Shown here: positions 1-4,419 of the stretch, one piece after another | Position numbering within the stretch: the stretch's first letter is position 1 | How the letters are laid out: each line of letters begins with the position of its first letter | Notes under the pieces: generated by a model | Told to the model about the DNA's origin: nothing | Database searches by the model: none | The model's input: the letters and a program-made list of their open reading frames with translations, nothing else | Program-made: the position numbers and the translations under genes | Assembly (NCBI GenBank): GCA_012797845.1 | Contig: JAAZOH010000025.1 | Span: 3,767 to 67,766 of the forward strand | Length of the DNA: 64,000 nt | Direction of reading: 5' to 3' | DNA from: Candidatus Beckwithbacteria bacterium | GTDB taxonomy: Bacteria; Patescibacteriota; Microgenomatia; UBA1400; UBA1449

Positions 1-671
1 TGCATTTCCATTTGTTCAAATTCCCTAGTCCTAAAAATAAATTGCCGAGCGGTAATTTCGTTTCGGAAAGCTTTTCCAATTTGAGCAATTCCAAACGGTA
101 TTTTTACTCTGGTTGAGTCCAGTACATTTTTATAGTTTAAGTAAATCCCCTGGCAAGTCTCACCTCGCAGATAGCTTGGTTCTTTTGTCCAATCGCCTGT
201 AAAATTACCTAGGTTTGATTGCACTAGTAAGTTAAATTTTTTAACTTGACTAAAGTCCTGAGCTTGGCAATTAGGACATTTGATTTGATTTTTATTGCTT
301 TCAAAAAGTTGATTAATCTCTTCAGCTGACATTTTTTCATCAGCCGCAACTCCAATTCCAGCCAACAAATGATCAGCTCGGGACCGAGCATGACAAGCTC
401 GACATTCAACTAAAGGGTCAGAAAAACCAGCCACATGCCCACTAGCTTCCCAGGTTTTAGGGTGCATAAAAATAGCCGAGTCTAAACCAACCACATCTTC
501 CCGCAGTTGCACCATATAGCGCCACCAGGCTGCTTTAATATTGTTTAAAAGCTCCGCTCCCACTGGACCATAATCATAAATAGCCGCAAAGCCTCCATAA
601 ATTTCAGATGATGGATAGACAAATCCCCGACGCTTAGCTACTGCTACAATGTCTTGCAAAGAAGTAGTCAT
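1..671 (-). CDS. glyQS: Glycyl-tRNA synthetase, alpha2 (dimeric) type, N-terminal ~223 aa; the gene continues beyond the left window edge
   Basis: Manual translation of the reverse strand from the ATG at 671-669 gives MTTSLQDIVAVAKRRGFVYPSSEIYGGFAAIYDYGPVGAELLNNIKAAWW...FRNEITARQFIFRTREFEQMEMQ. This carries the class II aaRS motifs typical of Thermus/Staphylococcus-type GlyRS. It is missing from the ORF track because it runs off the window edge. Confidence 0.85.
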   Translation of the reverse strand, partial: MTTSLQDIVAVAKRRGFVYPSSEIYGGFAAIYDYGPVGAELLNNIKAAWWRYMVQLREDVVGLDSAIFMHPKTWEASGHVAGFSDPLVECRACHARSRADHLLAGIGVAADEKMSAEEINQLFESNKNQIKCPNCQAQDFSQVKKFNLLVQSNLGNFTGDWTKEPSYLRGETCQGIYLNYKNVLDSTRVKIPFGIAQIGKAFRNEITARQFIFRTREFEQMEM

Positions 672-850
672 ATATCAAGAATAAAGAATTAAAAGTAAAG
701 AATCAAGCTCTTATATCTTAATTTTTCATCTTTAAAAATAGTTGAGCTATCCGCCTTCGTCCCTGAGGCTACACATAGACTTATTCAGTCTCGTTTGCCT
801 CAGGAGACTTCGGCGGATTATTGCATTTTATAACTTAATAAGTACGCAAT

Positions 851-901
851 AAAAAAACCGTCTCTACAAAGCTTTAATTTAATAAAACTTTATAGGGACG
901 G
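851..901 (-). terminator. Intrinsic terminator of the T-box leader: 14-bp stem (13 pairs, 1 mismatch) plus a U7 tract
   Basis: Minus strand CCGTCCCTATAAAG-loop-CTTTGTAGAGACGG followed by TTTTTTT. The 5' arm overlaps the 3' half of the antiterminator. Confidence 0.65.
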
Positions 902-1006
902 TTCTTAAAGAATCGCGGTTCCACCCTATTTGACGAAACATGTAATCCAATAATTTCGTCCGCTCTTGTTTTTATAGCTCCCGCTTGCCAAAGCGATCAT
1001 AGCTTA
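851..1006 (-). promoter_or_regulatory. T-box riboswitch leader, glycine-specific type, upstream of glyQS
   Basis: The minus strand carries the 14-nt T-box consensus AGGGTGGAACCGCG within AAATAGGGTGGAACCGCG (plus 914-931). The antiterminator bulge is UGGA, and its A would pair with discriminator U73 of tRNA-Gly. Stem III (GACGAAA..TTTCGTC, plus 932-960) precedes it, a candidate GGC specifier lies at plus 987-989, and a mutually exclusive terminator overlaps its 3' side. Confidence 0.75.
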
Positions 1007-1012
1007 GTTTTT

Positions 1013-1040
1013 ATAATAGCAAATTTTGTTAAAATTACAA
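1013..1040 (-). promoter_or_regulatory. Candidate sigma70-type promoter for the glyQS leader: -35 TTGTAA, 16-nt spacer, -10 TATTAT on the minus strand
   Basis: Hexamers read directly on the reverse strand (-35 = plus 1035-1040, -10 = plus 1013-1018). They place the transcription start just upstream of the T-box stem I region. Confidence 0.35.
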
Positions 1041-1041
1041 A

Positions 1042-1269
1042 CTATGTATGTTTGCAAACTTCTTCACCTAACTCTTTACTAAAGGAAATAAGTTGTTGAG
1101 TAGTAAATATGCTCCCACTAGCCAGCAAGCCGGCTAAAATTCCAGCAGCAATTTGAGTCTCATTACCACCTAACCAAAGACCATATGCCACACCTGATGA
1201 AACAGTACTAGTAGACGCCTCAAGCAAATCTCTTAAATTGGGATTTCGAAGCAACTGTTCTTTAATCAT
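1042..1269 (-). CDS. Small hypothetical protein (75 aa) with a glycine-zipper-like hydrophobic segment (GVAYGLWLGGNETQIAAGILAGLLASGS)
   Basis: ORF between recO and the glyQS leader with no recognisable family. Could be a small membrane protein. Confidence 0.35.
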   Translation of the reverse strand: MIKEQLLRNPNLRDLLEASTSTVSSGVAYGLWLGGNETQIAAGILAGLLASGSIFTTQQLISFSKELGEEVCKHT

Positions 1270-1839: not shown

Positions 1840-4419
1840 TTAGATTTTCCAACTTTTAGTCGTATCTTTATCTAAAGTAAATTCTTCTTCTTGGCCTTTG
1901 ATGCGGACAATGTACTTACTATTTTTAGTACCAGGTTGTTTTTGAACTAGCATACTATAAGCATCACCAGCTTTTACTTTAAAAGGTAAAGTGTAAGTAA
2001 TAATAATCTTAGCTTTTTTCTCAGGATATAGTTCAAAAAAGCCTTCAAACACGGTTTTGTCCAAATCTTCACTTTGAGTAATTTTAGTTAAAGCTCCTCG
2101 CCCTTCCTCCAATTTTGAACCTTTTGGTACATAAATCCGGAAATAATCACGCCATTTTCCAGACAAACATAAGTCACCAGCTTCCAAATTACAATTATCC
2201 ATTGGTTCAGGATGGGTATAGGTAATTGTCAAAGTCTTGGTAACCGTACCATCATCGGCAATTTCGATATCCTGTTCAGCTTCCTGATCAATATAAAAAT
2301 TAGATTTAGCCCCACCAAGATTAGCGTCATTGATGTGCAAATAATCATTTTTAGCTTCATTGATTCTACCGGCAATATTGAAAGCTTCAGCAGCTTTTTG
2401 TAGCTTTTCATCTTTAAAATAAACCAGCAGATGTTTTTCTTCCATGAGTTGAAACATAAGCGGCACTAGTTTAGCTAGTTGTTCCTTACCACCACCCAAA
2501 GATTTTTTCATCAGAGCTTGCATCATTGGACCCAAAATAGAAGTTTTACGGTTAGTCACTACGGTAGCTAGTGGCTTATCAACAATGTGTTCCAGCTCGC
2601 AAACAATTTGAGCTAAATTACACCTAGGATCATTTTCAACTGTAAAGGTTCCATAATCATCAACTACCAAAGGACCAGTCACTTCAACCATGCGCCGTAA
2701 CACTTCTGTATCAATAGCAATAATGCCATCTACTTTATATTCATCTTTAAGTTCTGAATAGTATTTATCAAAAGTAGTCATAGATACATAATAATCAGGT
2801 GAGAAATTCATATTGCGCAAATACCAATAGTCTTCATTCATGTGAATTTTAAATGGTTCTGGAGCTTCAACTTTGTTGCCAAATTTCTTATCCAAACTAT
2901 AAATATCATCACTTTTCTCTGGGGTAGTTCGTCCTTTATCAATATTAATAACTGCAAAAGCACTCATAAAACCACCAGTTGGTCGCAGTTCACCATCATT
3001 TTGGAAAATAACTAAGTATTTCTTACTTGTCGGATACCCTAAAATTTGAGGTAAAACTTCAACTAACGGTCTGGCGTCAGTGACCGCTACCACAGCTTCA
3101 GCTACCAAGGCTTTACCTTGAATTAGGCGAGGTCTGATTGATTTGCCCTGAAGCTCTTCAGGATAGTCATTTGGGTCAATTTTATCTAGCTCATCTTCCA
3201 CAATCTGAAGTTTTTGCGAAACTTCTTCCAGTTTCGGAGTCACTTTGTCTAAAGTTTCAACTACTTTAACGATTCGGTCTTCAGCTGTTCCACCTTCAAA
3301 GCTACCTTGACCTTTTAAACCCAACACATCAGCATACGGCAAAACTGCATCAACTAAAATTTCTCCAGCTTCAATTCCAGCCACTCCAGCTTTAAGTCCA
3401 GCTTCAGCATCAGTAGCATAAGTTGATACAAACGGTATCGCTTTAAGCCATGAGAGCTTCTGATAGGCTTTTTGAGTAGCCAACAATGCTGTTTTAGTTT
3501 CACTTAACTTGGTTTTAGCTGGTTCTAAATCTTGGTTTTTGACTAAAGTATAAGCCTCTTGGGCTAAGGTCATAGTTTTCTGACCATTATCTAGAACCGG
3601 CTTTGCTAGTAAATAAGTGGTGGCCCCTAAGGCAATTACAAGCACCAAAACTACCCCCACTCCAATCCCAATCAGTTTTAAAGTTTTTTTACCCTTTTTC
3701 TGTTCTGCTTTTGGAGGTTGTTCTGTTTTTTTCTTACCAAACGGTAATTTAGCTTTAATTTTTGCCATAAGTGATAGTTTTTCTTCTTTTTCTACTTCCT
3801 GGTTTTGTTCAGGTTGAGATTCTACTTTTGGTTCTTGAGATTGAGCTTCATTTGGCTGATTTTCTTGAGGCTGCACTTGGGCTTCTACTGGTTTAGCAGC
3901 TTCACCTTGAGTCTGGTTTTCTTCAGGTTTAGTGGCTTCTGGTTGGGATTGTGCTTCTTGAGGCTTAGTTGTCGTCTCAGCTTGTGTTTGATTTTCTGCT
4001 GGAGCTGCCTCAGCCTGAACTTGGCTACTAGCATTGCCTGACTCCACTTTTCCTGGTTCGGTTTGTACTGGTTCAGTAGGAGCTGTCTCGGCTTTATTAG
4101 CTTCATTTTGAACTGGCTCTGGGGCATCTTTTTTGCCATCTTCAACTACCTGTGAATCTACTGGCTCGGTTTTTTTAGGGTCAGTATTTTGCTCAGCTGC
4201 AGCTTCTTGAGACTTTTCAGCTTCAACTGGCTTAGCGTCATTAGTCTCAGCTTTCTCTGGTTGAACTGAGGTTTCCGGCTCATTAAGTGCCTTAAGTTCG
4301 GTCGCTACTTCTTTAATCTCATTAACCAACTCTTGTGTTTCAGAGGAGATATCAGTTGTTTTATCATGAATGATTTGTTTTTTTGTTTTGGGCATAGGCA
4401 AGATGGCTCCGCTTACCAT
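1840..4419 (-). CDS. Membrane-anchored extracytoplasmic protein, DUF4012-like, with a ~230-aa disordered E/P/Q/T/A/K-rich cytoplasmic N-terminus
   Basis: Low-complexity N-terminus, then a single TM (LIGIGVGVVLVLVIALGATTYLL), then a large conserved C-terminal domain. This architecture resembles DUF4012 proteins found beside polysaccharide loci. Confidence 0.45.
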   Translation of the reverse strand: MVSGAILPMPKTKKQIIHDKTTDISSETQELVNEIKEVATELKALNEPETSVQPEKAETNDAKPVEAEKSQEAAAEQNTDPKKTEPVDSQVVEDGKKDAPEPVQNEANKAETAPTEPVQTEPGKVESGNASSQVQAEAAPAENQTQAETTTKPQEAQSQPEATKPEENQTQGEAAKPVEAQVQPQENQPNEAQSQEPKVESQPEQNQEVEKEEKLSLMAKIKAKLPFGKKKTEQPPKAEQKKGKKTLKLIGIGVGVVLVLVIALGATTYLLAKPVLDNGQKTMTLAQEAYTLVKNQDLEPAKTKLSETKTALLATQKAYQKLSWLKAIPFVSTYATDAEAGLKAGVAGIEAGEILVDAVLPYADVLGLKGQGSFEGGTAEDRIVKVVETLDKVTPKLEEVSQKLQIVEDELDKIDPNDYPEELQGKSIRPRLIQGKALVAEAVVAVTDARPLVEVLPQILGYPTSKKYLVIFQNDGELRPTGGFMSAFAVINIDKGRTTPEKSDDIYSLDKKFGNKVEAPEPFKIHMNEDYWYLRNMNFSPDYYVSMTTFDKYYSELKDEYKVDGIIAIDTEVLRRMVEVTGPLVVDDYGTFTVENDPRCNLAQIVCELEHIVDKPLATVVTNRKTSILGPMMQALMKKSLGGGKEQLAKLVPLMFQLMEEKHLLVYFKDEKLQKAAEAFNIAGRINEAKNDYLHINDANLGGAKSNFYIDQEAEQDIEIADDGTVTKTLTITYTHPEPMDNCNLEAGDLCLSGKWRDYFRIYVPKGSKLEEGRGALTKITQSEDLDKTVFEGFFELYPEKKAKIIITYTLPFKVKAGDAYSMLVQKQPGTKNSKYIVRIKGQEEEFTLDKDTTKSWKI

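Follow-up and report, generated by a model that had tools for sequence, protein, structure and literature searches.

What regulates the glycine--tRNA ligase (GlyRS) gene of an uncultured member of Candidatus Beckwithbacteria, a lineage of the Candidate Phyla Radiation (CPR, or Patescibacteria), and how much of a T-box does its leader contain? The question is raised by 64,000 nt of contig JAAZOH010000025.1 (assembly GCA_012797845.1, positions 3,767 to 67,766), hereafter the window, for which a sequence-only reading had proposed a complete, glycine-specific, terminator-type T-box leader before an alpha2-type GlyRS gene in a low-GC genome. Most of that description stands: the genome is low in GC (30-38%), the downstream open reading frame (ORF) encodes a single-chain glycine--tRNA ligase of 455 aa and of the alpha2 type (Pfam PF00587 and PF03129), and the leader before it bears the marks of a glycine-specific, terminator-type T-box. 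The word "complete" does not stand, because the upper Stem I that forms the elbow platform is missing and 87 positions of the Rfam model are deleted. We consider it likely, from its sequence and predicted folds, that the leader is a T-box family transcription attenuator for GlyRS, with Stem I cut to its base and a predicted response to tRNA-Gly(GCC). All coordinates are given in window numbering, and the leader is read on the minus strand, 5' to 3' in descending positions. Its discriminator half and the gene that follows are laid out as listed here.

961-965, minus strand: purine string GAGCG on the 5' side of Stem III, fitting RRRxG
932-960, minus strand: Stem III, GACGAAA (960-954) with UUUCGUC (938-932), 7 bp, 15-nt loop
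914-927, minus strand: T-box 14-mer AGGGUGGAACCGCG, an exact match, identical in three related leaders
917-923, minus strand: T-box bulge UGGAACC, of which UGGA (923-920) is complementary to the tRNA 3' end UCCA
892-929, minus strand: antiterminator, made of A1 (AUAGGG, 929-924, with CCCUAU, 897-892), the 7-nt bulge and A2 (GCG..CGU, with a G.U pair beside the bulge)
851-902, minus strand: intrinsic terminator, hairpin 857-902 plus U7 tract 851-857
1-671, minus strand: glycine--tRNA ligase, the regulated gene, with its ATG at 671-669, running off the window; identified by its Pfam domains

The minus strand carries AAAUAGGGUGGAACCGCG, which includes both the 14-mer and the bulge. The conserved 14-nt T-box consensus is AGGGUGGNACCGCG (PMC11297988), and AGGGUGGAACCGCG at 927-914 satisfies it exactly. 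The discriminator-domain signature, 5'-RRRxG-Stem III-AA-3' (PMC11404447), is also present, as GAGCG (965-961), the 7-bp stem and AA (931-930). Stem III lies immediately 5' of the T-box and folds at -9.2 kcal/mol (z = -2.4). All glycyl T-boxes carry UGGAACC with A as the bulge base (PMC11404447), and the structural alignment to RF00230, the T-box family of Rfam, pairs A1 (aGGG/CCCu) and A2 (GCG/CGU) around the same seven nucleotides in the window. On the 3' side, the terminator arms ACCGUCCCUAUAAAG (902-888) and CUUUGUAGAGACGGU (871-857) form 14 pairs with one internal C.A mismatch and are directly followed by U7. This GC-rich hairpin and U-tract sit 180 nt upstream of the ATG, with no sequestrator of the ribosome-binding site in place of a terminator. 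The consensus 14-mer, the adjoining 7-bp Stem III, the UGGA bulge and the terminator with its U7 tract had all been named in the sequence-only reading, which did not mention the mismatch.

Constrained folding confirmed that the 5' arm of the terminator also closes the antiterminator through AUAGGG/CCCUAU, as had been proposed. The strand CCGUCCCUAU is used by both structures, so that the two folds (-7.6 kcal/mol for the antiterminator, -23.7 kcal/mol for the terminator) are mutually exclusive. The antiterminator, much the weaker of the two, needs outside stabilisation, as is classical for a T-box. The 201-nt leader as a whole folds with z = -4.05. As read from these motifs and folds, the discriminator half is fully canonical.

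Homology statistics agree on the family and require some care with thresholds. RF00230 was the sole Rfam family with E <= 0.1 across the 64-kb window (45.7 bits, E = 7.5e-7), and the motif GGTGGNACCRCG, with at most one mismatch allowed, occurred once in 64 kb against 0.12 expected occurrences. At the gathering score, which is 93 bits for RF00230 in the Rfam copy used, the whole window returned no matches. The sequence-only reading had proposed to give up the T-box if RF00230 did not score above threshold, and taken formally the empty scan does refute it. This is nevertheless a poor yardstick: CPR leaders score 38-46 bits and seven Firmicutes GlyRS leaders 60.7-109.6 bits, and five of these seven genuine leaders (L008, L014, L019, L031 and L040; 60.7-92.5 bits) also stay under 93. 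Since the Firmicutes controls fall below gathering too, the empty gathering scan is no refutation of a T-box. Glycine T-boxes without Stem II are systematically under-called at the curated Rfam threshold. A pattern scan of the viral collection gave no matches.

The 5' half of the leader is where the window departs from the canonical form. Its features, together with those of the promoter, are as follows; L082 is the corresponding leader of a second Beckwithbacteria genome.

1035-1040, minus strand: -35-like hexamer TTGTAA, from a promoter scan (sigma-70-like, TTGTAA-16-TATTAT plus an upstream TG, 9/12 matches)
1013-1021, minus strand: extended -10 element TGCTATTAT, from the promoter scan, aligning with the extended -10 block of L082
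976-1004, minus strand: truncated Stem I, AGC-UAU-GA-UCGCU-UU-GGC-A-AGCGG-GA-GCU, 29 nt, from sequence and fold
985-992, minus strand: specifier loop UUUGGCAA, with the GGC codon at 989-987 and the following purine A986
966-975, minus strand: single-stranded linker AUAAAAACAA, 10 nt

Judging from the conserved extended -10 element and the usual spacing of ~7 nt, transcription probably starts near 1005-1007, which leaves only ~30 nt before the linker. The element in this space rises from a 3-bp helix through a 3-nt bulge and tandem G.A/A.G pairs to a 5-bp helix (U.G, C-G, G-C, C-G, U-A) capped by a terminal loop, and its base (AGC-UAU-GA...GA-GCU) resembles a kink turn (K-turn) in the canonical register. 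The specifier codon in the loop, GGC-A (989-986), matches the amino acid of the regulated GlyRS and has a purine next to it. For comparison with canonical leaders we used three Firmicutes GlyRS leaders, L014 (CGGC-GAU-GA-UGGGA...GGC-A-CCCCU-GA-GCUG), L031 (GCAAC-GAU-GA-AAGAU...GGC-A-GUCUG-GA-GUUGC) and L029 (GUUGC-ACU-GA-AGGAA...GGC-A-UUCUG-GA-GCAAC). The register of codon, purine, 5 nt, GA and closing helix is identical in the window and in all three, which identifies the window hairpin as the basal part of a T-box Stem I. In this alignment, the ~65 nt between the 5' helix strand and the codon are replaced by UU, and the AGUA side, upper helix, AG bulge, distal loop and S-turn are gone.

Consistent with this, the 5' element of the window shows neither an AGUA side of the specifier loop nor an AG bulge, a distal loop or an S-turn, and neither the RF00230 alignment nor the sequence offered a credible Stem II, pseudoknot or F-box in the 10-nt linker AUAAAAACAA. 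The RF00230 alignment swaps 87 Stem I model positions for 14 nt in the window, and 64 for 6 nt in the related leader L093. The earlier placing of a GGC triplet in the short Stem I of a compact glyQS-type T-box thus survives in part: GGC is present at 989-987 and Stem II is absent, but the upper Stem I is absent as well, and GGC lies in the terminal loop of a 16-29-nt hairpin. Two other pairing schemes were rejected. The Rfam covariance model itself draws its Stem I from upstream-ORF sequence in the window and, in L093, from the -10 region, a placement that is not conserved, presents non-glycine codon triplets and ignores the homologous hairpin. GCCAAG near Stem III, considered as a partner of the UUGGCAA loop, occurs in only two of the four CPR leaders and at differing positions.

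Three relatives share this leader. L082, recorded also as L083, comes from a second Beckwithbacteria metagenome-assembled genome (GCA_012798485.1) with the syntenic order DUF4012-RecO-leader-GlyRS-x-MraZ, and L088 and L093 are Logan contigs; L082 and L093 are complete upstream, and L088 is cut just 5' of Stem III. Their GlyRS proteins are 72-76% identical to that of the window and among themselves. All four leaders have the same 14-mer, the RRRxG and AA flanks (with AGAAG in L082, AAGUG in L088 and GAGAG in L093 as equivalents of the purine string), a Stem III hairpin, an antiterminator and a terminator. At the position of Stem III, the relatives have a hairpin of entirely unrelated sequence. 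The antiterminators are weak, at -7.8 to -9.5 kcal/mol, and the terminators strong, at -21 to -24 kcal/mol with U5-U7 following. Terminator pairing holds in 98% of cells over the four leaders, compared with 34-57% in slid registers, and the changes among them amount to one G-C/A-U exchange and three wobble changes.

The specifier hairpin shows a similar pattern of conservation. GGC-A is invariant in all three full-length CPR leaders, as are the loop YUUGGCAA and its closing C-G pair (window, L082 and L093), and the stem beneath differs (UCGC/GCGG in the window, UCG(U)C/GCGA in L082, AUCUAC/GUAGAU in L093). From CGC/GCG to UAC/GUA, two pairs are doubly compensated. The three stems also differ by one single-sided change, and RNAalifold independently recovers the hairpin. 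With a background of 1.6e-4 per nt for TTGGCAA in all sequence retrieved, we put the probability that it lies by chance close to the 5' ends of two further leaders at ~1e-5. The L082 promoter (10/12 with TG, aligned with that of the window) directly follows the RecO stop codon and ends 8 nt before the hairpin, and stop codon, promoter and hairpin all lie within ~25 nt of one another; abutting both its neighbours, it leaves no room for a long Stem I. The linkers cannot be aligned (10 nt in the window, ~23 in L082, ~40 in L093). The K-turn-like motif is missing, judged by sequence only, from L082 and L093, and their longer linkers would fit a need for more slack where there is no kink. In L093, the 40-nt linker (L093:243-282) can also fold into one more hairpin, placed between that of the specifier and Stem III and not seen in the window or L082; it may be an insertion particular to this lineage or a rudimentary Stem II. 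Separately, the metagenome assembly ENA ERZ928041 contains L083 and L081, from differing Beckwithbacteria-like genomes whose GlyRS are 74% identical, both with the truncated T-box. ERZ928041 is the metagenome from which the contig of the window (k127_428933) derives.

Bacterial tRNA-Gly has the anticodon GCC and U73. From the sequence anatomy, the alternative structures and their conservation in other CPR genomes, we infer tRNA binding and switching along the following lines. The first ~30 nt of the transcript would form the K-turn-like base and 5-bp helix, whose loop UUUGGCAA would present GGC and the purine, and after the 10-nt linker would come the canonical discriminator domain with its UGGAACC bulge. 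The anticodon of uncharged tRNA-Gly(GCC) would pair with GGC of the 5' terminal loop and stack on the conserved A, and its 3'-UCCA would pair with UGGA of the bulge, with Stem III and its purines as support. The fourth bulge base, A, would then face discriminator base U73, as the sequence-only reading had proposed. The tRNA-stabilised antiterminator (~-8 kcal/mol) would then beat the terminator (~-24 kcal/mol), and RNA polymerase would read into the GlyRS gene; glycyl-tRNA would bring no such stabilisation and transcription would end at U7 (851-857). Such a class I T-box would work like the glyQS leaders but contact the tRNA at two sites, the anticodon and the 3' end, and not at three, with no elbow platform, in which it departs from all characterised transcriptional T-boxes, and no Stem II or pseudoknot to compensate. 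The loop, written as YU-UGGC-AA, may display GGC in an anticodon-loop-like manner. Whether the ~113 nt that run from the 5' hairpin through the antiterminator could be a natural minimal T-box, in which codon-anticodon and UGGA-UCCA contacts alone would give tRNA-Gly-specific and aminoacylation-sensitive antitermination, is a narrower claim, which we put forward tentatively as a little short of probable.

Several observations weigh against a tRNA-responsive switch of this kind. Transcriptional T-boxes "generally require" the elbow platform (PMC7583486). The elbow contact speeds the first binding step, and its disruption in glyQS leads to a ~40-50 fold loss of affinity (PMC6197855), and T-boxes with a truncated Stem I barely bind tRNA without Stem II (PMC7583486). 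In the CPR leaders themselves, the specifier hairpins are thermodynamically modest (-4 to -7.7 kcal/mol, z -0.5 to -1.0), and covariation statistics from three full-length leaders and one partial leader were not above shuffle controls. Folded in isolation, the 5' segment of L093 favours a different structure, and the promoter of this leader is ambiguous; among the full-length leaders the K-turn-like base is seen in the window only. That glycine T-boxes can do without Stem II is generally attributed to the exceptional strength of the GGC:GCC duplex (PMC7583486). We speculate that this strength may also permit the loss of the platform, perhaps together with slow transcription in these organisms.

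The strongest alternative is that the leader is a decaying or simplified relic, in which a constitutive attenuator, or one reduced to its discriminator and open to any uncharged U73 tRNA through UGGA, is left behind a 5' hairpin that is otherwise used, for example in stabilising the 5' end of the mRNA. The absence of both the elbow platform and Stem II, tRNA-body contacts that are known to matter (PMC7583486, PMC6197855), is what such a relic would look like, and the weakness of the specifier hairpin fits it as well. So does the patchy distribution of the T-box among closely related CPR GlyRS loci. The nearest GlyRS loci of the genome collection (CPR, 56-77% identity; L001-L007, L015, L023 and L027) lack a T-box both in the motif search and in Rfam at E <= 0.01. 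Most CPR GlyRS loci sampled are without one: set against the four leaders, the T-box is absent from 13 loci (L001-L007, L084, L089-L092 and L094), two of which, L084 and L091, are syntenic. Contig look-ups of GlyRS homologues returned a T-box leader in three of eight cases (P0002, P0015 and P0025) and none in the other five; the two look-ups of RecO homologues gave no T-box leader, as their contigs either stop short of it or have no GlyRS downstream. From this patchiness it follows that the T-box is dispensable, or has been lost or gained repeatedly. A hairpin kept for stability, however, would conserve its pairing and not its loop, whereas here stem and flanks diverge around an invariant YUUGGCAA, which holds the cognate codon and purine. 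In the window, this codon holds the exact canonical register to the K-turn-like base, the purine strings, antiterminator and terminator are intact in four lineages, and the promoters of the window and L082 lie at the hairpin. On balance, we regard the relic as unlikely, and a truncated attenuator that still answers to tRNA-Gly accounts better for what has been conserved.

Less probable again is a functional tRNA-Gly sensor in which an extra factor makes up for the lost platform, be it a K-turn-binding or other RNA-binding protein, a slow or pausing RNA polymerase, or hairpins downstream. The affinity loss of ~40-50 fold expected without the elbow contact (PMC6197855) would call for such help, and the K-turn-like motif (976-1004) and a further GA-rich hairpin downstream (750-817) speak for it. 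Neither is conserved in L082 and L093, however, no candidate protein was identified, and GGC:GCC is the strongest codon-anticodon pair, already the accepted reason for the loss of Stem II in glycine T-boxes (PMC7583486); we consider this explanation quite improbable. Finally, a complete canonical glyQS-type T-box, without Stem II but with a long Stem I bearing a K-turn, an internal specifier loop and the elbow platform, agrees with the discriminator domain, UGGA bulge, GGC-A specifier and terminator, and is refuted by the anatomy as read from the DNA, which leaves it hardly any probability: only ~30 nt separate promoter and linker, the AGUA side, AG bulge, distal loop and S-turn are lacking, 87 Stem I positions are deleted with a score of 45.7 bits against 61-110 in Firmicutes GlyRS leaders, and in L082 the RecO stop, promoter and hairpin lie within ~25 nt of one another.

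The surroundings of the truncated T-box show further features. Between its terminator and the GlyRS start codon lies a 68-nt GC-rich imperfect hairpin (750-817, minus strand), UCCGCC-GAAG-UCUCCUGAGGC...GCCUCAGGGA-CGAA-GGCGGA, with a symmetric GA-rich internal loop, in a region that folds with z = -6.9. It occurs once in the window, matches no Rfam family and is missing from all other loci compared, the L082 and L093 leaders included. A small AU-rich hairpin, AUUGCGUACUUAUUAAGUUAUAAAAUGCAAU (820-850, minus strand), stands directly after the terminator U-tract and is not conserved in the relatives. L088 has a structured insert of its own between terminator and ATG (L088:120-238), which includes GAUAGAAUCU...AGAUUCUAUC and is unrelated to that of the window. 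On the other side, RecO and the T-box promoter are separated by a 75-aa ORF without Pfam match (1042-1269, minus strand), whose stop codon is 2 nt away from the -35 hexamer; it is absent from L082, and L085 has a partial ORF after RecO at the same position. Farther upstream, 1840-4419 (minus strand) encodes an 859-aa DUF4012 protein whose N-terminal ~230 aa are of low complexity and rich in E, Q, P, A and K, and the gene order DUF4012-RecO-GlyRS is kept in L082, L084 and L091. ORFs at 1285-35633 are nearly all on the minus strand, tightly packed or overlapping. No tRNA or tmRNA genes were found in the 64-kb window, and a tRNA search of 25 CPR loci likewise found none.

Full-text literature searches, whose coverage is incomplete so that a prior description is possible, returned nothing that connects T-boxes with the Candidate Phyla Radiation or Patescibacteria. 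Within the same incomplete coverage, they returned no transcriptional T-box without both the platform and Stem II. If true, a terminator-type glycine T-box that is conserved and lacks both would be the smallest natural tRNA-sensing switch, and two-contact antitermination by tRNA-Gly, if true, contradicts the rule now current, by which the platform is necessary for transcriptional T-boxes. Such a minimal T-box would allow a direct test of the extent of contact with the tRNA body that co-transcriptional sensing requires, and would offer a compact scaffold for engineering. More broadly, the CPR leaders extend T-box regulation to the Candidate Phyla Radiation, and offer a rare case of native regulation by RNA in organisms where the control of genes has hardly been studied; Rfam scans at the curated threshold miss these truncated leaders. 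For specialists in RNA regulation, the relevance hinges on the tRNA dependence of the predicted switch.

Among known systems, the closest are the Firmicutes glyQS/glyS leaders (RF00230), such as those of B. subtilis glyQS and G. kaustophilus glyQ, for which PMC7583486 cites the structures 6POM and 6PMO. Like them, the window leader is of the terminator type, with GGC-A, no Stem II or pseudoknot and a linker of ~10 nt, and it shares the RRRxG-Stem III-AA signature, the identical 14-mer, the UGGAACC bulge topped by a G.U pair and, with its K-turn-like base, the register of K-turn and helix. Unlike them, it has lost the ~65-nt upper Stem I (AGUA side, S-turn GAA, hinge, AG bulge and the distal loop, which make up the elbow platform); Stem I of the Firmicutes leaders is long (~85-100 nt) and has an internal specifier loop together with an AG bulge and a distal loop, whereas the specifier loop of the window is terminal and its host belongs to the CPR/Patescibacteria.

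A truncated Stem I is otherwise documented in actinobacterial ileS T-boxes, which act on translation (class II) and depend on Stem II (PMC7583486, PMC11297988). As cited in these two papers (Sherwood et al. 2015), the ultrashort ileS leaders of M. tuberculosis and N. farcinica resemble ours in having a short Stem I without the elbow-binding interdigitated T-loop motif, and a specifier near the top of a short 5' hairpin. They differ in sensing tRNA-Ile and in controlling translation through a sequestrator of the ribosome-binding site, whereas the window has an intrinsic terminator with a U-tract, a glycine specifier, and neither a Stem II (with S-turn) nor a Stem IIA/B pseudoknot. Streptococcal glyQS leaders keep a full-length Stem I with the AG bulge and apical loop, unlike the CPR leaders (PMC11404447). 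However, they are without a recognisable K-turn (PMC11404447), which indicates that glycine T-boxes tolerate K-turn loss and variable linkers, and the L082 and L093 leaders are likewise without a K-turn.

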